Below, piece by piece: positions 1 to 37,674 of a DNA stretch of 64,000 bases. The notes beneath the pieces are model-generated. The model was given only the letters and a program-made list of their open reading frames with translations. It searched no databases and was not told the origin of the DNA. The stretch covers positions 62,001-126,000 of the forward strand of contig JASTWF010000327.1 in assembly GCA_030390025.1 (NCBI GenBank), given 5' to 3'. Position 1 is the first letter of the stretch. Each line of letters opens with the position of its first letter. Both the position numbers and the translations under genes were made by a program. Source of the stretch: Squalus acanthias (taxonomy: Eukaryota).

Positions 1-1720
1 CCTTATTAAAGGTCAGATGGGGAGGACCGCCTAAACCGACACCGGCTCAACCCACTACCTCAACTCCCAACACACAGAAAGAAGGAACAAGCGAACCAAC
101 CATGTTACAATGCCCGGTTATGACACCTGGGCCCATGAATGGACCAGTATTATTTACCGAGGGAGAACAATTGTATGATAACGTGAGACATGAAATTGTA
201 CCAGTACTAATAAACTTAACCATGTTACAATGGCCAGGATGTTGTGAAAGGTTCACTAAAACTAGAGAATTGTATGTATATATGATAAAGAATGTCATTA
301 ACCAAGCTGCTGATGCGACAGGGCCACTAGTTTCAGGGGACATGCTGCATTCCACCAAAGGATTAAGAGGAGCTTAGGAACCAATGTACTCACGGGGATA
401 AATACGGGGACATCGCTCATTAATGCCCTCGATATACAAGGAGTTCAGAGTCGTGTGGAATGACTACAAAGGGCAATACAACAGATTTTAGAGAAGGAAA
501 CGGGTTTAGTTCAATAAGGGTCGGAGTTGGGAGAAGATATGATAAGGAAATTACTCGAGGGAATTAAGGTTATAGAGGACCATGCTAGCATTGTTAACAA
601 ACTAAACCATAGAGATGAGGAACAGGCAAAAGACGGGGTAGGGAGAGGCTTGTGCCATGCCTATGGCCAATGGATCACCGGACAGTTAAAACACAATCTG
701 GCACAGATACAGCGAGGTGAGGTACTAGACTGGATTAACAGCACACAGCTCTATGGCATGAGCCAGAATCCAGGCCCTCTGAGTGCTTGTACCCTCAAAG
801 GGATGACCAGAGTATATCCAGTCATACAAAGATGTAAAGCAGAAGTGACAGCAATGATAGGCATGGTACTCCTGATACCGGTGGTGGGACTAGATACGGC
901 TCCATACCCGCAGTACCAGGTAACAAACACAGGCCTAGTGAGGGGTGAGACATACCTCCACTACTACCCAATTGATACCTATGCCATCATAAAGAATGGT
1001 ACTATGAGAGGAGTCTCCCTAAACGGATGCCATGGGAAAGGTATGCTTACGATATGCCCACATCCGGTAGGAGAAGGCCCTAAGGATGAGTGCAGCTATA
1101 ATAAGACAGAGGAGTGTGTGTTGGAATTATCACATGTTGATCACTATCACACCCGCTCGGGATATAGAGGCGAAGGGGAGTATTGTACAGCCACCACAGA
1201 GACTGAGTACCAATATAGTAACCTTGTATGTGCAATCACAATGCCTAACTTCTGCTTTACGCCAAAGATCCCTGTGACAATTGGATACACCAGATTGGTG
1301 TATGTACATTCAAGGGAGGAGATAAAACTAACTGTGCTAGATAATTTAAGAGATGAGTTGATCAATTATGAAGATCCGGTAGAGACCCCAATACCCCGCC
1401 TGCAAGAAGATCTGCAAGAAATGAAAGAGGATTTAAGTAGAATGGTGAAACAATACGTAGTGTTGCGAAGGAACCTTGGGGAACTAGAAAGGGACATAGA
1501 AGTAGAACTACAGGAAACCTCATGGTATGAGGAGCTGTGGGATTGGGGGATGAATGTCAACATACACCCATGGATCCGCATCATCTCTCACATACTAGTT
1601 ATAGTACAGTTGGTTTTGGCAATAGGATTGGGGATAGCAGCATGCGCTGCCTGTAAAAAACATAGAAAACAAAAGAGAAAGAGAGAAATGGAAGAAACGT
1701 ACATGACATTGATAAAGTAG
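1..1720 (+). pseudogene. env: Endogenous retrovirus-like envelope/fusion glycoprotein gene, degraded (frameshift near 350, stops at 461 and 515)
   Basis: In the frame of the 527-1720 ORF, 359-370 reads R-I-K-R (furin site), followed by SLGTNVLTGINTGTSLINALDIQGV (fusion-peptide-like) and a heptad. Then a Cys-rich ectodomain, a second heptad (LQEDLQEMKEDL..LGELERDI), a Trp-rich segment, a TM (IISHILVIVQLVLAIGLGIAAC) and a basic tail. An LTR remnant lies downstream. Confidence 0.8.
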
Positions 1721-1850
1721 TAATGCATGCTGTTCGGTGGTAATTGTTGCAGAAATCTCCTGGGCAGATTCCCAGCGAGCAGACGGAATATTACTACGAA
1801 TAAGAGAAAGCTTGGGAGAAAGACTTGCTTAACGGATGTATGGTACTAAC

Positions 1851-2904
1851 AGTCGATCGACAGTTCCGACGGGCCACAGCGAAAAACCGCATAGACCTCC
1901 TCAGAAGACGAACACGGGACACAACCAACAGAGTACCCTACGTCGTCCAGTACTTCCCCGGTGCGGAAAAACTACGCCATGTTCTTCGCAGCCTTCAACA
2001 TGTCATCGATGACGACGAACACCTTGCTAAGGCCATCCCCACGCCTCCACTACTCGCCTTCAAGCAGCCGCCTAACCTCAAAAGTACCATCGTTCGCAGC
2101 AGATTACCCATCTTTCAGGAGAACAGCAACCAAGACACCACACAACCCTGCCACGGCAACCTCTGCAAGACATGCCAAATCATGGACACAGATACCATCA
2201 TCACACGTGAGGACACTACCCACCAGGTACACGGTACATACTCATGTGACTCGGCCAACGTTGTCTACCTGATACGTTGCAGTAAAGGATGCTCCAGAGC
2301 ATGGTACATCGGGGAGACCATGCAGACACTGAGACAACGTATGAACGGACACCGCGCAACAATCGCCAGGCAGTCGGGGAACACTTCAGCAGCCAGGGGC
2401 ATTCAGCCTCGGATATGCGGGTAAGCGTTCTCCAAGGCGGCCTTCGAGATACACGACAGCGCAAAATCATAGAGCAGAAACTGATAGCCAAGTTCCGCAC
2501 TCATGAGGATGGCCTCAATCGCGATATCGGGTTCATGTCACGATACAGAACGTGACTTGACATCATGGCCGGTCTTCCCAGGTGTTTTTTTTTTAAAAAG
2601 ACTAACACAAGAACCTACACAGATTGACAGGATATGCAGCCAGCAGGTGGTTTGACACGTTGGACCCCCTGGGACACATCTCATTGTCTTGGCTGTGCTC
2701 TTTGATGTAGGAAAGATTTGAATATATTTTGTCTGTGTTTAAATTGTGAATTCTGGGAGATTCTCTCACTGCTAACTTACCTGACGAAGGAGCGAACTGT
2801 TCCGAAAGCTTGTAAAATCAAATAAATCTGTTGGACTATAACCTGGTGTTGTGCAACTTCTCATTTTTGTCCACCCCAGTCCAACGCCGGCATCTCCACA
2901 TCAT
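1851..2904 (+). mobile_element. Penelope-like element, 5'-truncated (GIY-YIG endonuclease end plus pseudo-LTR)
   Basis: ORF 1825-2424 has C..C.C and NVVYLIRC..WYIGET.....RMNGHR, the PLE GIY-YIG signature. The 3' tail matches copies at 4921-5295 and 7740-8235. Confidence 0.9.
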
Positions 2905-3037
2905 GACTTGTAATAAAGTTGATTTACTGAACGAACCTCCGGACTCCGAGTGATTGATTGGGAATAAGGCGGACGTCGACCCTTTATATCAGAGGGTCCG
3001 TCTCGGGGAGAAGAAGCTCTCCCGGGTTACCCTTACA
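2905..3037 (+). mobile_element. 3' portion (R/U5) of the 3' LTR of the env-bearing provirus
   Basis: Contains AATAAA and ends ...cccttaCA. Near-identical to the reverse complement of 4130-4262. Confidence 0.85.
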
Positions 3038-4108
3038 CTTGTCCATACTTCAAGACAAGTCTTCAAAGGGTTAAACAGCTTTTCGCTCTCTGTACAAAAG
3101 AGTGGGTGGAGCTAAAACAAAAATGGCAGACACTTTTTTAAAGACAGACTTTCAGACAAAAGAATTACTGTAACTTCTTAAACATTCACAGTCAGGTAAA
3201 CTTTCATCCTTTTAACACACAGTTTCACACAAACTGAGATACCAGCATTCCTTTTAAGATTCCTTTCACTCAGCAAATCTTATGTTTTATTTGTCTCGGC
3301 ACAGACATTAATAACTTCCATGTCGGTAAAACTTTAAATTTCTCTTTTTTTTTTCTTTTTACATCGACGTCTCAGCAGCTTTTCCTGGCTTTCCAAATCC
3401 CTGTTTTTTTCCCCTTCCTTTGCTGAGTTTTCAGATTGGTTATCCTGCAAATTAGATCTTTTTCCTTCTTTATCTCTCCCTCTCTCTCCTGCACTTTATG
3501 CTTAACCACATGGCTATGTTTCTCTCTGAACCCATTGTGGGTTTTTTTGAGACAGACTTCCCAGAATAAAGTTTATCACTTTTTAAAAGGGGACATTTAC
3601 CTTTCTTCTCGCAATACTTCTGTCCTGTTTCTACACAAACCACTATTGCCTCATCCTCCTTACTCCCTTTCTGTTGCATCCACCAATTGTTTTTCCATTT
3701 CGGTTTGTTTCCTGACTCATACCCTTTCTTAATCATCTTCCCCTTAACCTTTCCATATTTGTCTCGTACAAACTCGTACGGGAGTTTAGATCTTTTGGCG
3801 TTGTTTTTATTCGCCATTTTTGAGGTGGAGTTGCTAGTTCCTCCTCTTGTTACCTCCGGAACTCCCCCGGACCTCAGGGACTTTTCCCTGCTCACGCAGT
3901 TTTAACTCCGCCTTGACTGGACTTTCCCGTATCCAATCCTATATAACCCGAGCTCCTCAACTTATTCAGACATTTTCATTTTTACAATGTCCTAACACGC
4001 ACCTAAGTTGTTTTACTCACGTATCCGGACTCCGCCTCAGATTCGTTGGATCCCCGGCCTTGGGCTTTGATGCGAGGAGACAATGTCTCTACTCAGCCCG
4101 TCCGGTAG
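3038..4108 (-). mobile_element. Leader and degraded basic gag-like 5' region of a second, opposite-strand provirus
   Basis: Lies directly downstream of an LTR+PBS on the minus strand. Contains the Lys-rich ORF 3470-3895 (MANKNNAKRSKLPYEFVRDKYG...). No capsid or zinc-knuckle motif is visible. Confidence 0.5.
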
Positions 4109-4126
4109 ATCCTGCCGACTACGCCA
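4109..4126 (-). promoter_or_regulatory. Primer-binding site, tRNA-Ser
   Basis: Minus strand TGGCGTAGTCGGCAGGAT, 3 nt after the LTR end. Complementary to the vertebrate tRNA-Ser 3' end ATCCTGCCGACTACGCCA. Confidence 0.88.
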
Positions 4127-4129
4127 GAT

Positions 4130-4666
4130 TGTTAGGGTAAACCGAGAGAGCTTCTTCTCCCCGAGACGGACCCTCTGATATAAAGGGTCGACGTCCGCCT
4201 TATTCCCAATCAATCACTCGGAGTCCGGAGGTTCATTCAGTAAATCAACTTTATTACAAGTCGACAGGGGAGACATTCATCTGGGGATGAATGCTCTCCG
4301 ATCGTTAAAACTCCTCTACCTTATATACAGTTTCTGTTCTAAGTCGTGGCTATTGTCCCACAATTATTTACATTACATACAGTTGGTTTCAGGTGCATAT
4401 TCTTGTGGTCCGTGTGCACTTTAGTCTTGTAACTCCAAGGTTAAATTTAAGTAAATCAAATTAAACTGCTTTGAAAGATTTCACCATAGCAACCACGACT
4501 CCAAGGTTATTTCTAATATTTTACCCATTTAGTGATTGGTGGTGTGTAGTCTTGACCATGTTACACCATCCTTCCCCTTTTAAACTTGTTCATTAACCAC
4601 TCTTTATATGGTTGGATATATGCTTGGTTCCTTAATTTCCTCATTTTAGCTCTTTTAACCCTTTCA
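4130..4666 (-). mobile_element. 5' LTR (537 bp)
   Basis: Minus strand begins TGAAAGGGTTAA and ends CCCTAACA, with TATATAA near 4322 and AATAAA near 4250. Followed by the PBS. Same termini as the solo LTR at 36272-36811. Confidence 0.85.
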
Positions 4667-4667
4667 A

Positions 4668-5846
4668 GGGAGCTTTATTCTGTATCTAACCCGTGCTGTA
4701 TTTGCCCTGGGAGTGTTTGATGGGACATTGTATGGAGAGCTTTACTCTGTATCAAATGCACACTCTATCCTGGGAGTGTTTGACGGGAAAGTGTAGAGGG
4801 AGCTTTACTCTGTAGCTAACCCAAGCTGTACATACCCTGGGAGTATTTGATGGGACAGTGTAGAGGGAGCTTTACTCTGTATCTAACCCAAGCTGTACCT
4901 ACCCTGGGAGTATTTAATGGTCATGATGCGGAGATGCCGGTGTTGGACTGGGGTGGACAAAATTGAGAGGTCGCACAACACCAGGTTATAGTCCAACAGT
5001 TTTATTTGAAATCACAAGCTTTCGGAACTATCGCTCCTTCCTCAGGTGAAGTAAATTGGATACAGAATCGTCAGAGCATATATAGATGGAAAAAAAAGCA
5101 TGTGTACTTTACAATTGCAGACCAATAAATTTATTGGTCTGCAATTGTAAAGTACACATGCTTTTTTTTCCATCTATATATGCTCTGACGATTCTGTATC
5201 CAATTTACTTCACCTGAGGAAGGAGCGATAGTTCCGAAAGCTTGTGATTTCAAATAAAACTGTTGGACTATAACCTGGTGTTGTGCGACCTCTCAGTATT
5301 TAATGGGACAGTGTAGAGGGAGCTTTACTCTGTATCTAACCCAAACTGTACCTACCCTGGGAGTATTTGATGGGACAGTGTAGAGGGAGCTTTACTCTGT
5401 ATCTAACCCGTGCTGTACCTGCCCTGGGAGTGTTTGATGGGAAAGTGCAGAGGGAGCTTTACTCTGTATCTAACCCGTGCTGTACCTGCCCTGGGAGTGT
5501 TTGATGGGACAGTGTAGAGGGAGCTTTACTCTGTATCTAACCCGTGCTGTACCTGCCCTGGGAGTGTTTGATGGGACAGTGTAGAGGGAGCTTTACTCTA
5601 TCTAACTCGTGCTGTACTTGCCCTGGGAGTGTTTGATGGCACAGTGTAGAGGAAGCTTTACTCTGTACCTAACCCGTGCTGTACCTGCCCTGGGAGTGTT
5701 TGATGGGACAGTGTAGAGGGAGCTTTACTCTGTATCTAACCCGTGCTGTACCTGCCCTGGGAGTGTTTGACGGGAAAGTGTAGAGGGAGTTTTAATCTGC
5801 ATCTAACCCGTGCTGTACCTGCCCTGGGAGTGTTTGATGGGACAGT
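4668..5846 (+). repeat. 67-bp tandem repeat array
   Basis: Unit gggagctttactctgtatctaacccgtgctgtacctgccctgggagtgtttgatgggacagtgtaga, e.g. starting at 5519 and 5586. Interrupted at 4921-5295. Confidence 0.95.
4921..5295. mobile_element. Penelope pseudo-LTR foldback insertion with 12-bp TSD
   Basis: Palindrome 4964-5295 centred at 5129/5130. TSD agtatttaatgg at 4909-4920 and 5295-5306. Homologous to 2775-2904. Confidence 0.9.
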
Positions 5847-6399
5847 CCTCCTGTCTGATATAAACCAACCCACAGGCCCAGAAAGATTAAACTCAGCCCA
5901 TTGCTTGGATTGAACTTGTCTCTATTCCCGTGCTGAGGGGCTTGCTGTACCAGACGGGAGGGACAACATTTGGGGACTCTCGATTCTCCACCAATTCCCA
6001 TTCCCCTTCTTTCTGGTGGATAATGGAGGTGCCACTGTGTGTAATGTGCAAGTCATCAAGAATTGTCAGCAAGGATTAATCAGCACTTTCTAATTGTAGA
6101 TGTTAATCAGCAGAACCTTTCAGATACTGAATTGTAGATTTTGTAGCAAAGATTAATATAAGATTGAAGAAAAAGTTCATGATTTTATTGTAAATTAATT
6201 TCTGATGAGAGTTCCTGAATTAAGGGGAAAGATCACAGACAGCAGTTCGTGAATGGACACTGAAGCCCCGCGAACACAATCAACTATATATCCAGAATGG
6301 GGGTTTTTAACATCAGCAGAAACAAACCTCAACTGTCAGAATGAACATGCTTCAGTCCTGGATATGATTAACAGCAGCAATAACATCAAACCACTGCAG

Positions 6400-7074
6400 T
6401 CACATGTGAACTCGCTGGTGTCTCAGCAGGCTGGATAAATGAGTGAATCTCCTCTCACACACGGGGCAGTTGAACGGCCTCTCCCCAGTGTGAATTCGCT
6501 GGTGCATCAGCAAGGTGGATGAACGATTGAATCCCTTCCCACACACGGAGCAAGTGAATGGCCTCTCCCCAGTGTGAACTCGCTGATGTGTCCGAAGGTT
6601 GAATGAATTAATGAATCCTTTCTCACACACGGAGCAGGTGAATGGTCTTTCCCCAGTGTGAACTTGCTGATGTTTCAGCAGCTGGAATGAATTAGTGAAG
6701 CCTTTCTCACACACAGAGCAGGTGAATGGCCTCTCCCCAGTGTGAACTCGCTGGTGTATCAGCAGGCTGGATGAATTAGTGAATCCCTTCCCACATATGG
6801 AGCAGATGAACGGCCTTTCGCCAGTGTGAACTCGCTGGTTTGTCACAAGGTTGGATGAAGTAGTGAATCCTTTCTCACACACGGAGCAAGTGAACGGTCT
6901 CTCACCAGTATGAACACGCTGGTGTAACTGGAGGCTGGATCTCTGAGTGAATCCTTTCTCACACACTGAGCAGGTGAACGGCCTCTCCCCAGTGTGACTT
7001 CGTCGATGAGTTTCCAGCTTCGATGGGGAACTGAATCCCTTCCCACAGTTCCCACATTTCCACGGTTTCTCCAT
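6400..7074 (-). CDS. C2H2 zinc-finger protein, 8 fingers, no effector domain (ZNF-A)
   Basis: Intact 224-aa ORF (8 x 28 aa) with TGERP linkers and a Kozak accATGG start. Finger 3 has His>Asn. Confidence 0.85.
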
Positions 7075-7599
7075 GGTGCGGGTGTCCTTGTGTCTCTCCG
7101 GGTTGGACCATCAGTTGAAGCCTCATCCACACACAGAACACGTGTACAGTTTCTCCCCGCTGTGAATGGTGCAATGTGCTTTCAGGTTGTGTAACTGGTT
7201 AAAACATTTCTCCTTCCACATTCAATGCCCGATGATATTCGGGTCCTGATGAATGGAGTGACTCTGTCAGATCTTGATGTGATGTTTGGTTTGAGTTTCC
7301 CGTCTGCAAATCCTCCCCTTCTAATACCCTGTAAAAGGAGTTTACAAAAGTTATCACTGTGAGTACAAGATAGAAATTCAGAACAGGCAGTTATAGTTTC
7401 TGGAAAACATTCTTTCCTCTCCTGTTCCCCCAAAGCTGTAAATCCCCGTCCCACACACTCTCCCTCCTCCCTGTGCTGAAATCCAAACCCACTGCATCAT
7501 CTCCAACATTTCTTTCCTCCACTCCCAGTTTTCTCCCTCCCTCTACTCTGGTTGGGTTCAGTTCTACACCCGTTGTGTGCAGAGTGAGAATAAAATCAA

Positions 7600-11910: not shown

Positions 11911-12730
11911 TCATATATGAACTCGCTGGTGTTTCAGCAGATCCTTTTTGCTTTTAAAGCTCTTCTCACAGTCATAACATTTAAAAGGTCTCTCCTCAGT
12001 GTGAACAAGTTGATGTTCAGTGAGGTGGGATGACTGAGTGAATCCCTTCCCACACATGGAGCAGATGAATGGCCTCTCCCCAGTGTGAACTCGCTGGTGC
12101 GTCAGAAGGCTGGATGAATCAGTGAATCCCTTCCCACAATCAGTGCAGGTGAACGGCCTCTCCCCAGTGTGAACTCGCAGATGTCTCAGCAGGTGGGATG
12201 ATCGGATGAATCCCTTCCCACACACGGAGCAGGTGAATGGTCTCTCTCCAGTGTGTGTATGTTGGTGTGTCAGCAGATGCTGTTTGCTTTTAAAACTCTT
12301 CTCACAGTCAGAACATTTAAAAGGTCTCTTGTCAGTGTGAACATGCTGGTGTGTGAGAAGGTGGGATGACTGAGTAAATCCCTTCCCACACACAGAGCAG
12401 GTGAATGGTCTCTCTCCAGTGTGAACTCGCTGGTGTATCAGCAGATCCTTTGTGCTTTTATAGCTCTTCTCACAGTCAGAACATTTAAAAGGTCTCTCCC
12501 CAGTGTGAACTCGCTGGTGTGCCAGGAGGTTTGATAAAGCATTAAATCCCTTCCCACATTCGATGCAGGTGAATTTCCTCTCTCCAGTATGCACTCGCTG
12601 GTGTGTATGGAGGCTGGATGACTGAGTGAATCCTTTCCCACACACAGAGCAGATGAACGGCCTCTCCCCCGTGTGACTGCGTCGATGAGTTTCCAGTTCA
12701 GATGGATAACCATTTCCACGGTTTCTCCAT
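11911..12730 (-). pseudogene. C2H2 ZNF cassette, 10 fingers, frameshifted in finger 1 (ZNF-C)
   Basis: ATG at 12730 is followed by a 23-nt deletion (820+23=843 nt, i.e. 280 aa + stop). The remaining 9 fingers are open. Confidence 0.8.
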
Positions 12731-13949
12731 GGTGCGGGTGTCCTTGTGTCTCTCCAGGTTGGATGATCAGTTGAAGCCTCGTCCACACACAGAACACGTG
12801 TACGGTTTCTCCCCGCTGTGAACGGTGCGATGTTTTTTCAGGCAGTGTAACTGGTTAAAGCTTTTTCCACAGTCAGTGCACTGGAACACTCTCACTCGGG
12901 TGTGTGTGTCTCGGTGCTTTTCCAGTCACTCTGATCTTTGAAATCTTTTCCCATACAGAACAGGCAAATATTTCTCCTTTCACATTCAAAGGCTGATGAT
13001 ATTCCCTGTAAAAGCAGTTTACAAAAGACATCACTGTAAGTTCAGGATAAAACTGCAGTACAGATAATTCTAGTTTCTATGGAACATTCTTTCCTCTCTT
13101 TTACATAGAATTACATAGATTGTACAGCACAGAAACAGGCCATTCGGCCCAACTAGTCCATGCGGTGTTTATGCTCCGCACGAGCCTCCTCCCATCTCTC
13201 TTCATCTCACCCTATCAGCATCTCCTTCTATTCCTTTCTCCCATGTGTTTATCCAGCTTCCCCTGAAATGCATCCCTGCTATTCGCCTCAACTACTCCCT
13301 GTGGCAGCAAGTTCCACATTCTCAGCACTCTCTGGGTGAAGGAGTTTAATCTAAATAAGACTTTCCTGGGCAGCCAATGAGCACTGCTGCCTCTTCTGTG
13401 CATTTCCTGGCGAGGCTAAACAGTTGATATTTTCTGATCAAAAAGAGCTGAGCTCGGCAGCATTAGTCCTGTTTTGCCTCCCTTGGAGACCAGGTGTACG
13501 AGCAGAGTGAGCGCAGCCTTCACAGCAACCGCAATAAAATTGTTACAGTTGTGAAGGAACTATGTGTCAGTGCACTGGACCACAAACAAAGTATGTGTCG
13601 ATTATTGTCTGATTGCGCTACTGTGACATTTTAAAGGCGCTATATAAAGGTAAGTTGTTGTTGGTGTGAGTTTGCGGTGTGTAAATGCTGCCCTTCTCAC
13701 AGCCTGTAAAAGGAGTTTCCAAAAGCCATGACTGTGAGTCCAGGATAGAAATTGACAAGATTCTCTCCTCCTGGTTCCTGGCCAAGGGGGCCGCGCATGC
13801 GCCCTGCTGCCCCCTGAGCCTGTCAAGATGGCGGCCGTTAACCCGGGCCTGTCACCGGGAGAAAGCCCCGCAGCTGCCGCCCCGCTCGGGGCAAAGGCCC
13901 GGCCCGGAGGCTCTTGTTCGGGGCCTGAGGCCCACCCCAGGTGTTTGTG

Positions 13950-14400
13950 CAGCGGATAATGTTGAGTGTTTTAATAATGGGGCCTGGGGCCGCACTCGGG
14001 GTGTGTGCAGCCCGCGTCCCCCCGGGGTTTATTAACCCGCTCCCTGAGCTCTCTCACCTGATGTGTCAGCGGCTGCTGCCAAGATCCGCGCATGCTCAGC
14101 TCTCCTTTCGTTGTTCAGGTTCAAAGGTCAAGACCCGCCCCTCCCACACTCCGATTGGTTGGAGGACCCGCCGCCCGCTCGGTCCTCCAGGCCCGCCCCG
14201 CTCTTCCTATTGGTCCGGAGCTCCCGTCAATTACCCGGGCAGTGTGAGCTGAGCATGCGCGGACCTTGGCAGCAGCCTGCTGACACATCAGGTGAGAGAG
14301 CTCAGGGAGCGGGTTAATAAACCCCGGGGGGACGCGGGCTGCACACACCCCGAGTGCGGCCCCCAGGCCCCATTATAAGATCAGTGAACATTATCCGCCT
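13950..14400. promoter_or_regulatory. Palindromic bidirectional CpG promoter P2 with mirrored first exons
   Basis: About 150-bp inverted arms (13951-14102 and 14246-14398), each carrying an NRF1-like GCGCATGC and a CAG|GTGAGA donor. The core has ATTGG (CCAAT) and CCGCCC boxes. Lies between divergent ZNF genes. Confidence 0.75.
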
Positions 14401-15235: not shown

Positions 15236-15679
15236 GAATAAAAATGTTGGAGATGGTGCGATGGTTTAGATTTCAGCACAGGGAGGAGGGAGAGTGTGTG
15301 GGACGGGGATTTACAGCTTTGGGGAACAAGAGAGGAAAGAATGTTCCATAGAAACTAGAATTGTCTGTTCTGAATTTCTATCCTGTACTCACAGTGATGA
15401 CTTTTGTAAACTCCTTATACAGGGTATTAGAAGAGGGGGAGGATTTACAGCCGGGAAACTCAAACCAAACATCACTTCAAGATCTGACAGAGTCACTCAA
15501 TAGAGCAGGACCCGAATATCATCGGCGTTTGAATGTGGAAGGAGAAATGTTTTAACTAATTACACAGCCTGAAAAAACATCGCACCAATCACATTGGGGG
15601 CAAACAGTACACTTGTTCTGTGTGTGGACGAGGCTTCAACTGATCGTCCAACCTGGAGAGTCACAAGGACACCCGCACC

Positions 15680-16103
15680 ACGGAGAAAACCGTGGAAATG
15701 TGGGGACTGTGGGAAGGGATTCAATTACCCGTCTGAGCTGGAAATTCATCGACGCAGTCACACCGGGGAGAGGCCGTTCACCTGCTACGTGTGTGAGAAG
15801 GGATTCACTCAGTTATCCACCCTGCAGATACACCAGCGAATTCACACCGGGGAGAGGCCGTTCACCTGCCCCGTGTGTGGGAAGGGATTCACTCAGTCAT
15901 CTAATCTGCTGAGACACCAGCAAGGTCACACTGGGGAGAGGCCATTCACCTGCTCCATATGTGGGAAGATATTCTCTCAATTATCTGGCCTTCTGGCACA
16001 CCAGCGAGTTCATACAGGGGAGAGGCCATTCACCTGCTCCGTGTGTGGGAAAGGATTCAGCTGTCCATCCCACCTGCTGAAACACCAGCGAGTTCACAAG
16101 TGA
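15680..16103 (+). pseudogene. C2H2 ZNF cassette, 5 fingers, ACG start plus 1-nt insertion (ZNF-D)
   Basis: accACGgagaaaaccg has an extra A. 424 nt = 5 x 84 + 3 + 1. Confidence 0.75.
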
Positions 16104-17029: not shown

Positions 17030-20000
17030 TTTAGGGCACAGGAGACCATTCTGCCCATCGTGTCTGTGCCGGCTGAAAAGAGCTCTCCAGCCTAATCCCA
17101 CTTTCCAGCTCTTGGTCCGTAGCCCTGTAGGTTACGGCACTCCAAATGCATATCCAAGTACTTCTTAAATACGATGAGGGTTTCTGCCTCTACCACCCTT
17201 TCAGGCAGTGAGTTGCAGACCCCCACCACCCTCTGGGTGAAAAAAATTCTCAACTCCCCTCTGATCCTGATACAAATTACTTTAAATCTGTGCCCCCTGG
17301 TTATTGACCTCCCTGCTAAGGGAAATAGGTCCTTCCTATCCACTCAATCTAGGCCCCTCATAATTTTATACACCTCAATTAAATCTCCCTTCAGCCTCCT
17401 CTCTTACAAAGAAAGTAACCCCAGCTGATCCAATCTTTCCTCATAGCTAAAATTCTCCAGACCTGGCAACATCCTCGTAAATCTCCTCTGTACCCTCTCT
17501 AGTGCAATCATAGAAACATAGAAGATAGGAGCAGGAGTAGGCCATTCGGCCCCTCGAGCCTGCTCCGCCATTTAATGAGATCATGGTTGATCATCCAAAC
17601 TCAGTACCCTGTACCTGCCTTCTCCCCATATCCCTTGATACCTTTAGCTTTAAGAAATATATCTAACTCATTCTTGAATATATTTAATGACTTGGCCTCA
17701 ACTACCTTCTGTGGTAGAGAATTCCACAGGTTCACCACTCTCTGGGTGAAGAAATTCTTCCTCATTTCTGTCCTAAATGGCTTACCCCTTATCCTTAGAT
17801 TATGACCCCTGGTTCTGGACTCTCCGACCATCGGGAACATTCTTCCTGCATCTAGTTTGTCCAGACCTGTCAGAATTTTATATGTTTCGATGAGATCCCC
17901 TCTCATTCTTCTATACTCCAGCGAGTATAAGCCCAATCGACCCAATCTCTCCTCATATGTCATTCTGCCATCCCAGGTATCAGCCTTGTGAATCTTCGCT
18001 GAACTCCTTCCATGGCAAGAACTTCCTTCCTCAGATAAGGCGACCAAAACTGCACACTGTACTCAAGGTGTGGTCTCACCAAGGCCCTGTACAACTGCAG
18101 CAGGACATCCCTGTTCCTATACTCAAACCCTTTCGCTATGAAGGCCAACATACCATTTGCCTTCTTCACCGCCTGCTGCACCTGCATGCTTACCTTCAGC
18201 GACTGGTGCACAAGGACACCCAGGTCTCGTTGCACTTCCCCTTCTCCCAATCTATTGCCATTCAGATAATAGTCTGCCTTTCTGTTTTTGACACCAAAGT
18301 GGATAACCTCGCATTTATCCACGTTATATTGCATCTGCCACGCTTCTGCCCACTCACCAAACCTGTCAAAATCATCCTGGAGTTCCTCAGTATCCTCCTC
18401 GGAGCACACACGCCCACCCAGCTTTGTGTCATCTGCAAACTTGGAGATATTACATTTAGTTCCCTTATCCAGATCATTAATGTATATTGTGAATAGCTGG
18501 GGTCCAAGGACCGAACCCTGCGGTACCCCACTAGTCACTGCCTGCCACTCGGAAAAAGACCCATTAATTCCTACTCTCTGCTTTCTGTCTGCCAACCAGT
18601 TCTCTATCCAAGTCAATACCTTGCCCCCAATCCCATGTGCCTTAACTTTACACGCTAATCTCTTATGCGGGACCTTATCGAAAGCCTTTTGAAAGTCCAA
18701 ATACACCACATCTACTGGTTCTCCCTTATCTATTTTCCCACTTACATCCTCAAAAAATTCCAGTAGATTAGTCAGGCACGATTTACCTTTTGTAAATCCA
18801 TGTTGACTTTGTCCGATCCTGTCACTGTTTTTCAAGTGCTCAGCTATTACATCCTTTATAATGGATTCTAGCATTTTCCCCACTACCGATGTCAGGCTTA
18901 CCGGTCTGTAATTCCCCGCTTTCTCTCTACCGCACTTTTTGAATAGCGGGGTAACATTAGCTACCCTCCAATCCATGGGTACAGTTCCAGATTCCATCCA
19001 ATGTTGGAAGCTGATCAGCAATGCATCTACTATTTCTAGGGCCACTTCCTTAAGTACCCTAGGATGTAGATTATCAGGCCCTGGGGATTTATCGGCCTTC
19101 AATCCCGTCAATTTCCCTAACACCATTTCCCTGCAAATACTCATTTCTTTCAGTTCCTCCCTTTCATCAGACCGTATGTTCTCCAAGATCTCTGGTAGGT
19201 TATTTGTGTCCTCCTTTGTGAAGACATAACCAAAATATTCATTTAATTGGTCTGCCATTTCCTTGTTCCCCATTATAACTTCCCTCACTTCTGACTGCAA
19301 GGGACCTACACTTGATTTCACTAATCACGTTTCCTGTAATGTGGTGACCAGAACTGTACAGTACTCTAGCTGTGGCCTAACTAGTGTTTTATACAGTTCT
19401 TGCATAACCTCCCTGCTCTTATATTCTATGCCTCGGCTAATAAAGCCAAGTATCCCGTATGCCTTCTTAACCACCTTATCTACGTGTCCTACTACCTTCA
19501 GGGATCTGTGGACATGCACTCCAAGGTCCCTCTGTTCCTCTACACTTCTCCGTGTCCTACCATTTATTGTGTATTCCCTTGCATTGTTAGCCCTCCCCAA
19601 ATGTATTACCTCACACTTCTCCGAATTGAATTCCATTTGCCACTGTTCTGCCCACCTGACCAGTCCATTGATATCTTCCTGCAGTCTGCAGCTTTCTTCC
19701 TCACTATCAACCATACAGCCAATTTTTGTATCATCTGCAAACTTCTTAATCATACCCCGCAAATTGAAGTCTAAATAATTGATGTATACCACAAAAAGCA
19801 AGGGACCCAGTACAGAGCCCTGCAGAACCCCACTGGAAACAGCCTTCCAGTCTCAATACCATTCATCGACCATTACCCTTTGTTTCCTGCCACTGAGCTA
19901 ATTTTGGATCCAACTTGCCACTTTCCCTTGGATCCCATGGGCTTTTACTTTTCTGACCAGTCTGCATGTGGGTACTTGTCAAAAGCCTTGCTAAAATCCG

Positions 20001-21350
20001 TGTAGACTACATCAAACGTGCTACCCTCATCGACCCTCCTTGTTACCTCCTCAAAAATTCAATCAAGTTAGTCAGACACGACCTCCCCTTAACAAATCCA
20101 TGCTGACTGTCCCTGATTAATCCTTGTCTTTCTAAATGAAGATTTATTCTGTCCCTCAGAATTTTTTCCAACAATTTGCCCACCACCAAGGTTAGGCTGA
20201 CTGGCCTGTAATTACTCAGTCTATCCCTTTCTCCCTTTTTAAACAACAGTATAATGTTAGCAGTCCTCCAGCACCACACCTATAGGCAGAGAGGATTGAA
20301 AAATGATGGTCAGAGCCTCTGCTATTTCGTCCCTTGCTTCTCTTAACAGCCTGGGACACATTTCACCTGGGCCTGGCGATTTATCTACTTTCAAAGATGC
20401 TAAACCCCTTAATACTTCCTCTCTCACTATGTTTATCTCATCTAATTTTTCACACTCCTCTTCCTCAACTACAATGTCTGCATCGTCCTTCTCTATTGTG
20501 AAGACAGACACAGAGTATTCATTAAGAGCCATACCCACGTCTTCCGCCTCCACACACAAGCTTCCATTTTGCTCTCTAATAGGCCCGACTCTTTAGTTAT
20601 CCTCTTGCTCCTTTATGTATTTATAGAACATCTTTAGGTTTTCCTTGATTTTACTTGCCAATAAGCCCTCTCTCTGCTTTCCTAATTTCCCTTTTTAATT
20701 TCACCCCTGCACGTTCTGTACTCCTCTCGGCTTTCTGCAGTATTTAGCTCTCAGTATCTGACATAAGCTTCCCTTTTTTGCCTTATCAAACCCTGTATAG
20801 ATTTAGGAGTCCCACCCTTTTTCTTTGTGGGAACATATTTGCTCTGAACCCTCACTATCTCCTCCTTGAATGCCTCCCACTGTTCTGACACTGATTTACC
20901 TTCAGGTAGCTGTTTCCAGTCCACTTTTGCTAAATCACATCTCAGCTTATTAAAATTGGCCTTTCCCCAACCGAGAACTTTTACTCCTGATCTATCTTTG
21001 TCCTTTTCCATAACTACGCTAAATATAACTGAATTATGATCACTACCACCAAAATACTCTCGCACTGATACCCCTTCCACCTGCCCAGCTTCATTCCCTA
21101 AAACTAAGTCCAGAACCACCCCCTCCCTTGTTGGGCTTGCTACGTACTGGTTAAAAAAAAGTTCTCCTGAAGGCATTTTAAGAATTCTGCTCCCTCTCTC
21201 CCTTTTATACTGATTCTATCCCAGTTAATGTGAGGGTAGTTGGAATCTCCTACTATTACTGCCCTATTGTTTTTGCACGTCTCAGAAATTTGCCTAATTA
21301 TTTTCTCTTCTATCTCCCTCTGTCTATTTGGGGTCCCAGCAGTGTAACTG
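17030..21350 (-). mobile_element. CR1 LINE, degraded ORF2, host of a nested CR1
   Basis: Fragments with SDHN (APE endonuclease), KSPGP, NYRPVSL, FADD and LVRPQLEY. Sequence is contiguous across 17510/19323. Confidence 0.9.
17511..19322 (-). mobile_element. CR1 LINE (RT domain to 3' end) nested in the previous CR1
   Basis: 453-aa ORF with YLDFQKAFD, GVPQGSVLGP and FADD. The short duplication aatca occurs at both junctions. Confidence 0.92.
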
Positions 21351-23039: not shown

Positions 23040-23310
23040 GTGCCGCAAGCCCCGCCCCTCCCACACTCCGATTGGTTGGGGGACCCGCCGCCAGCTCGGT
23101 CCTCCAGACCCGCCCCGCTCTTCCTATTGGTCCGCCAGCTCCAGTCAATCACCCGGGCAGTGTGAGCTGAGCATGCGCGGACCTTGGCAGCAGCCGCTGA
23201 CACATCAGGTGAGAGAGCTCAGGGAGCGGGTTAATAAACCCCGGGGGGACGCGGGCTGCACACACCCCGAGTGCGGCCCCAGGCCCCATTATTAAAACAC
23301 TCAACATTAT
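23040..23310 (+). promoter_or_regulatory. Single arm of the P2 promoter/first exon
   Basis: Near-identical to 14135-14398 and 44870-45110. Donor CAG|GTGAGA near 23208. Confidence 0.7.
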
Positions 23311-23926
23311 CCGCTTCACAAACACCCGGGGTGGGCCTCAGGCCCCGAACAAGAGCCTCCGGGCCGGGCGTTTGCCCCGAGCGGGGCGGCAGCTGCGGGG
23401 CTTTCTCCCGGTGACAGGCCCGGGTTAACGGCCGCCATCTTGACAGGCTCAGGGGGCAGCAGGGCGCATGCGCGGCCCCCTTGGCCAGGAACCAGGAGGA
23501 GAGAATCTTGTCAATTTCTATCCTGGACTCACAGTCATGGCTTTTGGAAACTCCTTTTACAGGCTGTGAGAAGGGCAGCATTTACACACCGCAAACTCAA
23601 ACCAAACATCACATCAAGATCTGACAGAGTCACTCCATTCATCAGGACCCGAATATCATCGGCCTCTGAATGTGGAAGGAGAAATGTTTGTCTGTTCTGT
23701 CTGTGGGAAAAGATTTCAAACATCAGTGTGACTGGAAAAGCACCGAGACACACACACCCGAGTGAGAGTGTTCCAGTGCACTGACTGTGGAAAGAGCTTT
23801 AACCAGTTACACAGCCTGAAAAAACATCGCACCGTTCACAGCGGGGAGAAACCGTACACGTGTTCTGTGTGTGGACGAAGATTCAACTGATCGTCCAACC
23901 TGGAGAGTCACAATGAATCCCGCACC

Positions 23927-24671
23927 ATGGAAAAACCGTGGAAATGTGGGGACTATGGGAAGGGATTCAGTTCCCCATCGAAGCTGGAAACTCATCGACG
24001 CAGTCACATTTACCTGCTCCGTGTGTGGGAAGGGATTCACTCATTCATCCAACCTTCTGAGACACCAGCGAGTTCACACTGGGGAGAGGCCATTCACCTA
24101 CTCCGTGTGTGGGAAGAGATTCACTCAGAGATCCAGCTTGCTGATCCACCAGCGAGTTCACACTGGGGAGAGGCCGTTCACCTGCTTCATGTGTGGGAAG
24201 GGATTCACTCGTTCATCTGAGCTTGTGAAACACCAGCACATTCACACACGAGAGAGGCTGTTCACCTGCTCCGTGTGTAAGAAAGGATTCACTTGTTCAT
24301 TCGAGCTTTTGAGACATCAACGCATTCACACTGGAGAGAGGCCATTCACCTGCTCCACGTGTGGGAAGGGATTTAATCGACCATCCAAACTTCTGACACA
24401 CCAGTGCATTCACACTGGAGAGAGGCCGTTCACCTGTTCCGTGTGTGGGAAGGGATTCACTAATTCATCTGATGTTCTGACAGACCAGCGAGTTCACACT
24501 GGGGAGAGACTGTTCACCTGCTCCATGTGTGGGAAGGGATTCACTTGTTCATCCAGCCTGCTGACACACCAGCGAGTTCACACTGGGGAGAGGCCGTTCA
24601 CCTGCTCCGTGTGTGGGAAGGGATTCACTCAATCATCCCACCTGCTGAGACACCAGCGAGTTCACAAGTGA
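23927..24671 (+). pseudogene. C2H2 ZNF cassette, 9 fingers, 14-nt deletion after finger 1 (ZNF-E)
   Basis: 745+14=759 nt = 252 aa + stop. Also Cys>Tyr and His>Asp ligand losses. Confidence 0.8.
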
Positions 24672-26965: not shown

Positions 26966-27239
26966 CTGAGCCCACTGCCCATCCCCCGACCATGCCTGTT
27001 CTTTGTTCTCAGTGAGCACTGGCTCTTCACTTAAACTTAGCTCCCAAATTCCCAGACCTCTCTGCCGTCAAGACTGCATTTCTCCACTAGACTAGTGATC
27101 TAGTGACTAGCGGATCGCAAGTGGAGTTCGGAGCCAGGGATCGCGAGAATATCAGTGCTAATTTGATCCTGTGAGAGACAAAATCATTCATGTCCGAGGC
27201 CGGGACCCAGGAGCGAGGACAAGCCCAGCAGCGGGGTCA

Positions 27240-29830
27240 AGGCCCAGGAGTGGCACGGGCCAACAGTGGGGTCGGGGCCCAGGAGTGGCGCGGCATGGAC
27301 CAGCAGCGAGGTCAAGGCCCAGGAGTGGCGCAGTGTGGACCAGCAGCGAGGTCAAGGCCCAGGAGTGGCGCAGTGTGGACCAGCAGCGAGGTCAAGGCCC
27401 AGGAGTGGTGCGGCATGGGCCAACAGTGAGGTCAAGGCCCAGGAGTGGCGCAGTGTGGGCCAGCAGTGGGGTCGAGGCCCAGGAGTGGCGCAGTGTGGAC
27501 CAGCAGTGGGGTCGGGGCCCAGGAGTGGCGCAGTGTGGGCCAGCAGTGGGGTCGGGGCCCAGGAGTGGCGCAGTGTGGACCAGCAGTGGGGTCGGGGCCC
27601 AGGAGTGGCGCAGTGTGGACCAGCAGTGGGGTCGGGGCCCAGGAGTGGCGCAGTGTGGACCAGCAGTGGGGTCGGGGCCCAGGAGTGGCGCAGTGTGGAC
27701 CAGCAGTGGGGTCGGGGCCCAGGAGTGGCGCAGTGTGGGCCAGCAGTGGGGTCGGGGCCCAGGAGTGGCGCAGCGTGGGCCAACAGTGGGGTCAAGGCCC
27801 AGGAGTGGCGCAGTGTGGACCAGCAGTGGGGTCGGGGCCCAGGAGTGGCGCAGTGTGGACCAGCAGTGGGGTCGGGGCCCAGGAGTGGCGCAGTGTGGAC
27901 CAGCAGTGGGGTCGGGGCCCAGGAGTGGCGCAGTGTGGGCCAGCAGTGGGGTCGGGGCCCAGGAGTGGCGCAGTGTGGACCAGCAGTGGGGTCGGGGCCC
28001 AGGAGTGGTGCAGTGTGGACCAGCAGTGGGGTCGGGGCCCAGGAGTGGCGCAGTGTGGACCAGCAGTGGGGTCGGGGCCCAGGAGTGGCGCAGTGTGGAC
28101 CAGCAGTGGGGTCAGGGCCCAGGAGTGGCGCAGTGTGGACCAGCAGTGGGGTCGGGGCCCAGGAGTGGCGCAGTGTGGACCAGCAGTGGGGTCAAGGCCC
28201 AGGAGTGGCGCAGTGTGGACCAGCAGTGAGGTCAAGGCCCAGGAGTGGCGCAGTGTGGACCAGCAGTGGGGTCGGGGCCCAGGAGTGGCGCAGTGTGGGC
28301 CAGCAGTGGGGTCGGGGCCCAGGAGTGGCGCAGTGTGGGCCAGCAGTGGTGTCGGGGCCCAGGAGTGGCGCAGTGTGGGCCAGCAGTGGGGTCGGGGCCC
28401 AGGAGTGGCGCAGTGTGGACCAGCAGTGGGGTCGGGGCCCAGGAGTGGCGCAGTGTGGGCCAGCAGTGGGGTCGGGGCCCAGGAGTGGCGCAGTGTGGGC
28501 CAGCAGTGGGGTCGGGGCCCAGGAGTGGCGCAGTGTGGACCAGCAGTGGGGTCGGGGCCCAGGAGTGGCGCAGTGTGGACCAGCAGTGGGGTCGGGGCCC
28601 AGGAGTGGCGCAGTGTGGGCCAGCAGTGGGGTCGGGGCCCAGGAGTGGCGCAGTGTGGGCCAGCAGTGGGGTCGGGGCCCAGGAGTGGCGCAGTGTGGAC
28701 CAGCAGTGGGGTCGGGGCCCAGGAGTGGCGCAGTGTGGACCAGCAGTGGGGTCAAGGCCCAGGAGTGGCGCAGTGTGGACCAGCAGTGGGGTCGGGGCCC
28801 AGGAGTGGCGCAGTGTGGACCAGCAGTGGGGTCGGGGCCCAGGAGTGGCGCAGTGTGGACCAGCAGTGGGGTCGGGCCCAGGAGTGGCGCAGTGTGGGCC
28901 AGCAGTGGGGTCGGGGCCCAGGAGTGGCGCAGTGTGGACCAGCAGTGGGGTCGGGGCCCAGGAGTGGCGCAGTGTGGGCCAGCAGTGGGGTCGGGGCCCA
29001 GGAGTGGCGCAGTGTGGGCCAGCAGTGAGGTCAAGGCCCAGGAGTGGCGCAGTGTGGACCAGCAGTGGGGTCGGGGCCCAGGAGTGGCGCAGTGTGGACC
29101 AGCAGTGGGGTCGGGGCCCAGGAGTGGCGCAGTGTGGACCAGCAGTGGGGTCGGGGCCCAGGAGTGGCGCAGTGTGGACCAGCAGTGGGGTCGGGGCCCA
29201 GGAGTGGCGCAGTGTGGACCAGCAGTGGGGTCGGGGCCCAGGAGTGGCGCAGTGTGGACCAGCAGTGGGGTCGGGGCCCAGGAGTGGCGCAGTGTGGACC
29301 AGCAGTGGGGTCGGGGCCCAGGAGTGGCGCAGTGTGGACCAGCAGTGGGGTCGGGGCCCAGGAGTGGCGCAGTGTGGACCAGCAGTGGGGTCGGGGCCCA
29401 GGAGTGGCGCAGTGTGGACCAGCAGTGGGGTCGGGGCCCAGGAGTGGCGCAGTGTGGACCAGCAGTGGGGTCGGGGCCCAGGAGTGGCGCAGTGTGGGCC
29501 AGCAGTGGGGTCGGGGCCCAGGAGTGGCGCAGTGTGGACCAGCAGTGGGGTCGGGGCCCAGGAGTGGCGCAGTGTGGACCAGCAGTGGGGTCGGGGCCCA
29601 GGAGTGGCGCAGTGTGGACCAGCAGTGGGGTCGGGGCCCAGGAGTGGCGCAGTGTGGACCAGCAGTGGGGTCGGGGCCCAGGAGTGGCGCAGTGTGGACC
29701 AGCAGTGGGGTCGGGGCCCAGGAGTGGCGCAGTGTGGACCAGCAGTGGGGTCGGGGCCCAGGAGTGGCGCAGTGTGGACCAGCAGTGGGGTCGGGGCCCA
29801 GGGAAGGTGCGGCACGGGCCAACAGCGAGG
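27240..29830 (+). repeat. 40-bp GC-rich minisatellite (about 64 copies)
   Basis: Unit ggcccaggagtggcgcagtgtggaccagcagtggggtcgg. Confidence 0.97.
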
Positions 29831-30352
29831 TCGGGAGGACCACAATGCATCCTACGAAACCCAGGCAGAGAGGACCTGCGGGAAGGAGGGAGGAGGACAG
29901 TAGCATTGTTTGTGTGTGTGTGCTAGGCCGTTGTAGCAGAGCCTGGTCTCCAATCGTCTTGGCTCCCCTTGTCATTGGACCAAGACCTTGCTCTGTCAAG
30001 CCCGTGTGGTAGCTGCTGTGCAACGGCCACCCCACGTTAAAAGAATTCACGCACAGGCATCTTCCACCCTTTAAAATGAAGTTCGGGACCTGGAATGTCA
30101 GGACCCTCATGGACAACCCCAACAGTGACAGACCGGAACGCCGTACTGCTATCGTTGCCCGGGAGCTCAGACGTTTCTACATTGACATCGCTGCCCTAAG
30201 TGAGACCCGGCGGGCAGGGGAAGGCCAGCTCAAGGAGCAAGGCGGTGGCTACACCTTCTTCTGGAAAGGCAAACCTGAAGAAGAACGCCGCCTCCATGGG
30301 GTAGGTTTCGCCATAAAAAATGAACTAGTTGGGCATCTCAGAGACTCCCCTA
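29830..30352 (+). mobile_element. RTE-clade LINE 5' fragment (APE endonuclease N-terminus)
   Basis: MKFGTWNVRTL...ERRTAIVARELRR..IDIAALSETRRAGEGQL.E.GGGYTFFWKG...HGVGFAIK. Breaks off at about 30352. Confidence 0.85.
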
Positions 30353-30814: not shown

Positions 30815-31489
30815 TCACTTGTGAACTCGCTGGTGCCTCAGCAGGTTGGATGAGAGAGTGAAGCCCTTCCCACACACGGAGCAGGTGAACGGCCTCTCCC
30901 CAGTGTGAACTCGCTGATGTGTCAGCAGGTTGGATGACTGAGTGAATCCCTTCCCACACACAGAGCAGGTGAACGGCCTCTCCCCACAGTGAACTCGCTG
31001 GTGTGTCAGCAGGGTGGATGATTGATTGAATCCCTTCCCACACACGGAGCAGGTGAACGGCCTCTCCCCAGTGTGAACTTGCTGGTGTCTCAGAAGGTTG
31101 GATGACCGAGTGAATCCCTTCCCACACTCAGCACAGGTGAACGGTCTCTCCCCAGTGTGAACTCGCTGGTGTGTCAGCAGGGTGGATGATTGACTGAATC
31201 CCTTCCCACACACGGAGCAGGTGAACGGCCTCTCCGCAGTGTGAACTTGCTGGTGTCTCAGAAGGTCGGATGACCGAGTGAATCCCTTCCCACACTCAGC
31301 ACAGGTGAACGGTCTCTCCCCAGTGTGAACTCGCTGGTGTGTCAGAAGGTTGGATGATTGAATGAATTCCTTTCCACACACGGAGCAGATGAACGGCCTC
31401 TCCCCGGTGTGACAGCGTCGATGAATTTTCAGCTGGGAAGGGTAATTGAACCCCTTCCCACAGTCCTCACATTTCCACGGTTTCTCCGT
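30815..31489 (-). CDS. C2H2 ZNF cassette, 8 fingers, open frame beginning at ACG (ZNF-A')
   Basis: 675 nt stop-free from aacACGg at 31489, the same length as ZNF-A. Contains an internal two-finger duplication. Confidence 0.65.
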
Positions 31490-32064
31490 GTTGCGGGTGT
31501 CCTTGTGTCTCTCCAGGTTGGACGATCAGTTGAAGCCTCGTCCACACACAGAACACGTGTACGGTTTCTCCCCACTGTGAACGGTGCGATGTTTTTTCAG
31601 ACTGTGTAACTGGTTAAAGCTCTTTCCACAGTCAGTGCACTGGAACACTCTCACTCGGGTGTGTGTGTCTCGGTGCTTTTCCAGTCACACTGATGTTTGA
31701 AATCGTTTCCCACAGACAGAAGAGACAAACATTTCCCCTTCTATATTCAAAGGCCGATGATATTCAGGTCCTGATGAATTGAGTGACTCTGAGATTTTAA
31801 CGTGATGTTTGGTTTGAATTTCCCGTCTGTAAATCCTCCTCTTCTCACACCCTGTAAAAGGAGTTTACAAAAGTCATCACTGTAATTACAGGATAGAAAT
31901 TCAGAACAGACAATTCTAGTTTCTATGCAACATTCTTTCCTCTCTTGTTCCCCCAAAGCTGTAAATCCCCGTCCCACACACTCTCCCTCCTCCCTGTGCT
32001 GAAATCATACCATCGCATATCGCCCAACAGTTTGTCCCCCACTCCCAGTTTTCTCCCTCGACGC

Positions 32065-37589: not shown

Positions 37590-37674
37590 AGGAGGAGTGA
37601 AAAGGGCCCAGAAACTGGTAACTGTTAAAGTGGCAGAGGGCACTTACACCCTGGTCCACTTTTGAATCATCTCC

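Follow-up and report, generated by a model that had tools for sequence, protein, structure and literature searches.

Envelope glycoproteins (Env) resembling viral fusion (F) proteins have been published for two groups of retroviruses, the lokiretroviruses (Loki; PMC7947760) and the foamy viruses, whose Env is reported to have an F-type (class Ib) fold (PMC11468914). The 23 published Loki Envs (PMC7947760), some of them compared in part, form a tight family extending from lamprey to frog. Here, we describe a related gene in a stretch of Squalus acanthias DNA (contig JASTWF010000327.1, positions 62,001-126,000 of the forward strand), hereafter the window, which is 64,000 nucleotides (nt) long; the element under study occupies window positions 1..4666, and all coordinates below are window positions. 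Our analysis indicates that the window opens with the disrupted env end of an endogenous retrovirus (ERV) that exists in multiple copies. The Env of this ERV is predicted to be of the F type, and its backbone is probably that of a canonical fish retrovirus (epsilon-like or snakehead-like) and not that of a lokiretrovirus. Within this reading, an epsilon-like (class I) backbone comes close to an even call, and a snakehead-like one is rather unlikely. An initial annotation had called the element Loki-like because of its long post-cleavage subunit. This step fails: foamy, epsilon (walleye) and snakehead Envs match as well, so that an F-like fold is not diagnostic, and the label is left unsupported.

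The envelope gene

The pre-cleavage part of env, comparable to F2 or a surface subunit, lies at 3..340 on the plus strand in frame 3 and is truncated by the window start. Positions 102-323 align with residues 164-235 of an intact relative from Mustelus asterias (P0078, 714 amino acids (aa)) at 43% identity, and frame 2 from 323 onward aligns with residues 236-677 of the same protein at 44% identity; a frameshift near 320-350 thus splits the pre-cleavage part from the furin site. The furin cleavage motif RIKR (359..370) is aligned with RSKR and RNKR of relatives and is followed by a putative, Gly/Thr-rich fusion peptide (371..433). The roughly 450 codons that the initial annotation had placed after RIKR are confirmed by a count of 449 up to the stop codon (1718-1720); the frame is not open, since two in-frame stops (461-463 and 515-517) fall inside the part formed by the first heptad repeat (HR1) and the central helices. 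Similarly, the fusion-peptide-like segment holds by its position directly after the furin site; its hydrophobicity is weak (mean hydropathy 0.54), its predicted local distance difference test (pLDDT) score is below 50, and the pre-cleavage part stands in another frame.

The remaining plus-strand features follow one another in the AlphaFold2 (AF2) model and the hydropathy profile in the order previously proposed. They comprise HR1 with the central helices (425..712; model helices at residues 23-118), a Cys-rich beta-sheet core corresponding to F domains I/II (809..1297; strands at residues 151-313, block pLDDT 61-97), the second heptad repeat (HR2) with a Trp-rich membrane-proximal segment (1403..1567; helices 349-386 and 389-399), and a transmembrane (TM) helix with a short basic tail and the stop codon (1568..1720; helix 404-452). 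The highest Kyte-Doolittle 19-mer of Env (2.69) lies at residue 412. Ten cysteines lie in the ectodomain; one of them is at +95 of the post-cleavage part, and three fall between +272 and +295. A motif search agreed with the earlier observation on gamma-type hallmarks: CX6CC is absent from the 449 post-cleavage residues, and this subunit length and the lack of a TLV_coat-type Pfam match likewise set the protein apart from gamma-type Envs.

With one frameshift and two stops, this env copy is dead. The env family is multi-copy, since in each of the four sequencing runs env is covered by contigs that are 85-95% alike. A co-opted cellular gene was rejected as an explanation because the copy is broken and multi-copy.

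Predicted F-type fold

For structure prediction, env was entered with X at the stops, together with a 48-row alignment, and yielded a model with a mean pLDDT of 71 and a predicted TM-score (pTM) of 0.40. The Foldseek comparison of the reconstructed Env that the initial annotation had proposed returned 84 PDB matches at E <= 0.001. The first two were human metapneumovirus (hMPV) F and foamy Env 8RM1 (both E 6.7e-8), and the 32 of the 84 that are listed are all pneumo-, paramyxo- or foamy fusion proteins. VIA-align placed respiratory syncytial virus (RSV) F, hMPV F and foamy Env at ranks 1-7 (Z 6.7-7.5), and the core at 809..1297 has matches to pneumovirus F and foamy Env in both programs. Against BFVD, invertebrate-virus glycoproteins came first, with the Envs of walleye epidermal hyperplasia virus 1 (WEHV1) at rank 7 (E 1.5e-5) and of walleye dermal sarcoma virus (WDSV) at rank 9 (E 2.5e-5). 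A feature search of the ESM Atlas scored arthropod Gypsy/Baculo_F clusters (0.95 and 0.94) above paramyxovirus F0 (0.93), at a recognition value (1970) below the reliable level.

At the level of sequence, the PDB gave foamy Env 8RM1/8RM0 as the best matches (E 3.8e-4 and 2.3e-3) and no pneumovirus or paramyxovirus F up to E 10; single-sequence Pfam and PDB searches with the window env returned nothing meaningful. Taken together, the matches of the predicted model support a nested domain I/II/III class Ib core, as in paramyxo- and pneumovirus F and foamy Env, and bear out the F-protein topology claimed earlier.

Similarity to epsilonretrovirus and snakehead retrovirus Env

The profile of the window-env family was searched against 512 open reading frames from IMG/VR virus records. 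Record L033 is taken here to be WDSV, and L059 presumably is snakehead retrovirus (SnRV), judging by their lengths (12,708 and 10,688 nt) and gene content; the foamy viruses among the records were presumed to be such on the same grounds. The L033 Env matched across positions 9-527 of the 543 in the profile (E 9.4e-7) and the L059 Env across positions 9-323 (E 3.6e-5); foamy Envs reached a best E of 6.2e-8 over part of the core only, and the gamma-type Env of L011 was not matched. When an 11-row family profile was compared by HHalign with the post-cleavage part of L033, the alignment ran end to end over 368 columns (96.7%, E 3.9e-10). The corresponding comparison with a 10-row foamy profile covered 158 columns of the central core only (31.6%), and that with the post-cleavage part of L059 gave 4.4%. 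In hmmsearch, L033 scored 24.6 bits, whereas the highest of 100 shuffles reached 5.7. Post-cleavage cysteines are similarly placed in both viruses, at +93 and 249, 262 and 269 in the L033 Env and at +79 and 231, 252 and 264 in that of L059.

On these profile matches, the Env appears to be homologous to WDSV/WEHV Env and, like it, without the gamma-type hallmarks; among the Envs scored, its family is apparently nearest to epsilonretrovirus Env, Loki Envs having been compared by eye. The initial annotation had considered orthoretroviral TM subunits to be much shorter than the one seen here. This does not apply to all of them, since the post-cleavage part measures 757 aa in the WDSV-type Env and 509 aa in the SnRV-type Env. 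It had also listed a match to an epsilon TM as counting against a Loki reading, and such a match was obtained, both by HHalign and with WEHV1 and WDSV in BFVD. The element is therefore likely not a lokiretrovirus, and the best scored viral match of its Env is likely the Env of a walleye tumour retrovirus.

As a separate observation, the L033 (5962-9651) and L059 (6131-9532) Envs themselves match an F-type profile, and the WDSV and WEHV1 Env models are Foldseek matches.

Relatives and host range

The eight proteins returned by a first search with env all belong to sharks and are 39-48% identical to it. When 1.84 billion representatives were searched with a profile, 54 matches resulted, two of which are false (the Calx-beta repeat proteins P0036 and P0055). 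Of the 35 that were looked up, 28 are named: 22 come from sharks or skate, five from frogs and one from the coelacanth, with no ray-finned fish or lamprey among these 28. The nearest Env relatives are those of cartilaginous fish, which supports a chondrichthyan host, a case that the initial annotation had considered. Alignment A3 leaves out fused, very short or false matches (P0009, P0030, P0032, P0033, P0036, P0044, P0046, P0047, P0049, P0050, P0055, P0059 and P0060). Genes related to the window env are present in C. punctatum and in S. torazame, and X. tropicalis carries a published Loki Env plus a separate member of the window-env family (P0076). F-type Envs are likely to occur more widely in the retroviruses of fish and amphibians than has been reported.

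The intact P0078 has 252 pre-cleavage residues with a Cys-rich N-terminal region, and its cluster contains further intact members of 699-722 aa, some in Mustelus asterias and others on contigs that reach 9,139 nt, a length sufficient for pol; P0084 and P0085 are encoded on contigs of about 9 kb. Searches of viral contigs and of metagenome contigs returned no locus with a related env. The C. punctatum gene model P0080 shares 39-44% identity with the window env and opens with an integrase-like tail; the best matches of that tail in Pfam and the PDB are to the integrase C-terminal domain of murine leukemia virus (MLV), both weak (E 0.15 and 0.095).

Several relatives (P0023, P0041, P0079 and P0046) show an apparent Ig-like domain before the fusion core; P0023 is named Ig-like, and P0041 has a V-set match at E 0.045. 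The N-terminal module of Env thus seems exchangeable, being Ig-like in some relatives and a Cys-rich region in P0078. The P0043 cluster comprises 16 members of the env family in Mantella aurantiaca, where 12 of the 15 listed are 677 aa long and several chromosomes are represented, which suggests a recent expansion. In other gene models, pieces of env are fused to fbxo15 (P0033), a cadherin-related 5-like protein (P0047), a Niban-like protein (P0050) or a caspase domain (P0044), reflecting either exonisation or an annotation artefact.

Long terminal repeats and primer-binding site

Downstream of env, 131 nt of proviral sequence (1721..1851, plus strand) are ended by an insertion and contain no polypurine tract of at least 11 nt. 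A 573-nt contig aligns to 1502-1851, and its remaining 223 letters are unaligned. The insertion is a 5'-truncated, Penelope-type retroelement with a GIY-YIG-like frame (1852..2904, plus strand) that sits between env and the end of a long terminal repeat (LTR). The name Penelope is our assumption from that motif, Pfam giving no match. Its summed contig depth is mostly 5e5-2e6, compared with about 1e3-7e3 on env; loose contig ends occur at 1852, and further copies of the element lie inside the window.

The LTR end that follows (R-U5; 2905..3037, plus strand, 133 nt) is identical at 129 of 133 positions to 4262-4130 and is likely what remains of the 3' LTR of the env element. Next comes an inverted sister element. 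Its leader and the start of a gag-like frame occupy 3038..4108 on the minus strand, with an ATG at 3817 and an open frame to 3473. Because six contigs continue with different letters before 3038, the plus-strand LTR can be said to interrupt the minus-strand element at this point, and the plus-strand element is likely a nested, inverted insertion into its minus-strand sister. The frame at 3817 is called gag-like by its position only; it has no homolog among the longer proteins and no Atlas match, and its AF2 model (pLDDT 40) is unusable.

The primer-binding site (PBS; 4109..4126, minus strand, 18 nt) lies 3 nt beyond the LTR end and occurs once in the window, where 0.01 occurrences are expected by chance. 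Its 15-nt core was found at 121 metagenome loci, among which ARAGORN called five tRNAs, all five of them Ser (four AGA, one CGA) and each carrying the core at its 3' end, so the site reads as complementary to tRNA-Ser. The Ser PBS had no matches in viral contigs, and no tRNA gene is present in the window. The complete 5' LTR of the sister element (4130..4666, minus strand, 537 nt) has TG...CA ends that form imperfect inverted repeats, a TATA-like box at 4327 and AATAAA at 4255, and adjoins a 67-nt satellite. An alternative LTR start at 4565 was dropped, as 4666 yields a terminal inverted repeat and adjoins the satellite. The tRNA-Ser PBS previously assigned to this LTR family is hence real as an 18-nt site; it belongs to the inverted sister element (4666-3038), and its link to env is indirect. 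On the simplest reading, the env element quite probably used the tRNA-Ser LTR.

Two further observations concern the LTR family. Between 2965 and 3590, contig depth sums to roughly 10-50 times the value at the gag start, pointing to a stretch common to a higher-copy repeat or a non-autonomous derivative. In addition, an LTR variant in one run lacks 343 nt of U3 within 4294-4638, and depth is raised over 4369-4524, pointing to several LTR subfamilies.

Alternative explanations

The view of the initial annotation was that of a genuine lokiretrovirus of cartilaginous fish, or of a lineage sister to lokiretroviruses, whose Env has diverged. This view accommodates the RXKR site, the F-type fold and a post-cleavage length of 449 residues, compared with about 450 in Loki-Bsp; the published screen of chondrichthyan genomes, moreover, covered six draft assemblies with one RT (reverse transcriptase) query only. 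We nevertheless regard Loki membership as improbable, and a Loki backbone as disfavoured. The screen reported no Loki RT in any of the six genomes (PMC7947760), although C. punctatum and S. torazame, both screened, carry relatives of the window env. Pfam PF00523 had no match at E <= 1 in the window env frames and none in 34 search matches (36 scanned proteins in all), whereas a Loki Env matched it at 2.2e-7 by another method, the conserved-domain search used in the Loki paper. Compared by eye, Loki Envs start their core directly after the signal peptide, have a strongly hydrophobic fusion peptide and, where the region is readable, four post-cleavage cysteines, without the +95 cysteine or the late cysteine triplet. 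The window Env does have the RXKR site, fusion peptide, coiled coil and TM segment of Loki Envs (a signal peptide would lie beyond the window), but not their short pre-cleavage part and four post-cleavage cysteines, an architecture that is our own summary and not a criterion of the paper; its cysteine layout differs, its pre-cleavage part is longer and its fusion peptide weaker. No Ser PBS string stands at a PBS in the Loki supplement, where line breaks and 18 pages outside the search may hide matches, and one Loki element is reported with a Lys PBS (PMC7947760). Finally, the integrase-like tail of P0080 appears unlike the Loki tails with which it was compared. An assignment to the foamy-like ERVs (clade Tu) in cartilaginous fish is similarly improbable. 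Foamy Env provides the best PDB sequence match and the second Foldseek rank, and foamy Envs score 20-26 bits with the 48-row profile; their HHalign match, though, is confined to the central core, and the prototype-type foamy Env has no +95 cysteine. Foamy viruses use a tRNA-Lys PBS, the motif by which the foamy records were retrieved, whereas the window PBS is tRNA-Ser, if the LTR belongs to env. An env-bearing Ty3/Gypsy element of errantivirus-like type is the least probable of the readings considered: arthropod Gypsy/Baculo_F clusters lead the Atlas search, below its reliable level, and invertebrate-virus glycoproteins head the BFVD list, but all 28 named relatives come from jawed vertebrates, the end-to-end match is to a retroviral Env, and a survey of vertebrate genomes reports that intact ERVs of errantivirus-like type were not found there (10.1101/2023.10.26.564294).

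A further explanation, compatible with any reading of the Env, is that env and the tRNA-Ser LTR had separate origins in ERV families unrelated to each other, and that a deletion at a Penelope insertion, or between such insertions, brought the two together. At the insertion, some 400 nt of LTR and no fewer than 223 nt of 3' sequence are lacking, and no listed contig links the env flank to the LTR; on the other side, the LTR end has the same orientation as env, stands 1.2 kb after it with a single insertion between them, and env and LTR have summed depths of similar magnitude, which is a poor measure. We consider such a junction unlikely. Several results weigh against an Env on a canonical fish-retrovirus backbone. 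No pol is present among the open reading frames of the window, so that the backbone is deduced from other features. The VIA-align Z scores stay below 8, near the 6.6 of background coiled-coil helices. The best PDB sequence match is the foamy Env, and one foamy Env reaches 23.9 bits in hmmsearch (shuffle maximum 2.5), tied with the 24.6 of L033. An Env tree leaves L033 and L059 as long branches on an open fork and was not used to place the window Env. By eye, Loki Envs and the window-env family, its frog members included, share a GP-x-G core start, an LP-I..VG stretch and, in some, an HP before the TM segment; Loki Envs are thus homologous to the family, perhaps about as near to it as WDSV, and may score equally well. 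The gag-like frame matched none of seven reference Gags (best z 1.1), with z of 0.06 for WDSV and 1.05 for Xen1 in 500 shuffles. Among the 15 of 25 contig joints that are listed, none connects the env flank to the LTR. Lastly, the P0080 integrase tail fails to separate foamy from class I integrases and belongs to a gene model of another species.

Proposed mechanism

From the predicted fold, and with class Ib fusion proteins as the basis (PMC11468914), the Env precursor of the infectious ancestor would have formed trimers and been cleaved by furin at RIKR. On triggering, the fusion peptide would insert and HR1 would extend to a coiled coil; by folding back onto this coil, HR2 would bring the membranes to merge. 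The receptor-binding part is likely to have been the Cys-rich N-terminal region, as in the intact P0078. Provided that env and LTR belong together, reverse transcription was likely primed by tRNA-Ser. The window copy is dead, carrying, besides the frameshift and the two stops, the Penelope-type insertion at the place where a polypurine tract and the greater part of the 3' LTR would be expected, and it appears nested within the inverted element of the same LTR family.

Other features of the window

The 67-nt satellite forms arrays in opposite orientations at 4667-5850, the one adjoined by the LTR, and at 53853-55247. Within the first array, two inverted Penelope-type ends (4920-5295) form a long palindrome centred on 5129/5130. 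At 27115-29900 lies a GC-rich 40-nt tandem repeat with long open frames in several phases; its units, about 70 in number, are about 96-98% identical. Clustered C2H2 zinc-finger frames with HTGERPF linkers occur at 6400-7110, 11914-12837, 15573-16100, 23820-24668, 30818-31525, 46873-47748 and 59572-60111, and the sequences at 13605-13970 and 23296-23781 begin alike, which points to a segmental duplication. Fragments of long interspersed nuclear elements (LINEs) with RT and endonuclease are located at 17604-21215, 33679-37624, 49329-52305 and 55509-58112 (minus strand), the second of which looks nearly full length; they are presumably CR1-like, going by their motifs.

Implications and comparison with known systems

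The window copy itself is dead and ordinary, and its interest lies in the family it represents. As far as was found, the literature describes no F-type Env family of sharks and frogs, most subscription journals, Repbase and preprint supplements being outside the search; nor was an F-type fold statement found for epsilon or snakehead Env, with most subscription journals and Repbase again outside it. The copy is a real, dead member of an F-type Env family that apparently has no earlier description. A survey of anamniote Envs, as reported, used gamma- and beta-type queries only (10.1101/2021.11.23.469661), which places this family outside its reach. Snakehead-like and epsilon-like lineages are both known among the ERVs of sharks (PMC4422223), and chondrichthyan ERV RTs are reported to fall mostly in clade III (PMC11089739).

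Wang and Han set out four ways in which retroviral Env may have originated (PMC7947760) and later favoured independent captures by Loki and canonical retroviruses (PMC9040795), and a review describes an epsilon ancestor with a gamma-type Env and a recent WDSV Env (PMC9967133). An F-type family aligned end to end with the WDSV-type Env, and present across sharks, frogs and the coelacanth, makes such statements testable; it also means that an F-like Env is unusable for calling an element Loki. Together with the foamy, Loki, epsilon and snakehead Envs, this shark, skate, frog and coelacanth family would place class Ib fusogens on deep branches of the Retroviridae, and we tentatively raise the possibility, itself somewhat doubtful, that retroviruses ancestrally carried an F-type envelope. 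If this were true, the gamma and beta types of Env would have arisen later as replacements, and no separate capture from a negative-strand RNA virus would be required for Loki.

Among described proteins, the F proteins of pneumoviruses and paramyxoviruses (hMPV 5L1X, RSV 3RRT, measles 8UTF) are the best structural matches of the window Env, with identities of 10-15% only and a window gene that stands in an LTR context. Foamy Env (8RM0, 8RM1, 8OZH) has the class Ib fold and beta-core sequence similarity in common with it; it is described with a large insertion carrying the receptor-binding domain (RBD) and a second TM segment (PMC11468914), both absent from the intact P0078, whose 252 pre-cleavage residues stand against that insertion, and the PBS differs. 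The Loki Env of Wang and Han (2021; PMC7947760) resembles the window Env in its RXKR site, fold class, similar post-cleavage length and some motifs, and differs in having four post-cleavage cysteines, as opposed to ten ectodomain cysteines, an HR2 and a Trp-rich segment in the window Env, which has no PF00523 match. Snakehead retrovirus Env shares a partial profile match and a similar cysteine layout, against a weak HHalign result and a 625-residue pre-cleavage frame. Its record was retrieved by what we take to be a tRNA-Arg PBS motif, and the PBS of L033 presumably reads tRNA-His, compared with Ser at the window. The WDSV-type Env differs in its 19% identity and its 757 post-cleavage residues, compared with 449 and a short tail in the window Env; its reported lack of gamma-type hallmarks (PMC9967133) is shared. 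It is with the WDSV and WEHV1 Envs (BFVD A4GTG3 and Q9WHI8) that the post-cleavage ectodomain of the window Env has an end-to-end profile match, and the WDSV-type Env and the window Env have in common a Cys-Pro core start, a cysteine at +93 or +95, late cysteines and a Trp-rich segment before the TM helix.

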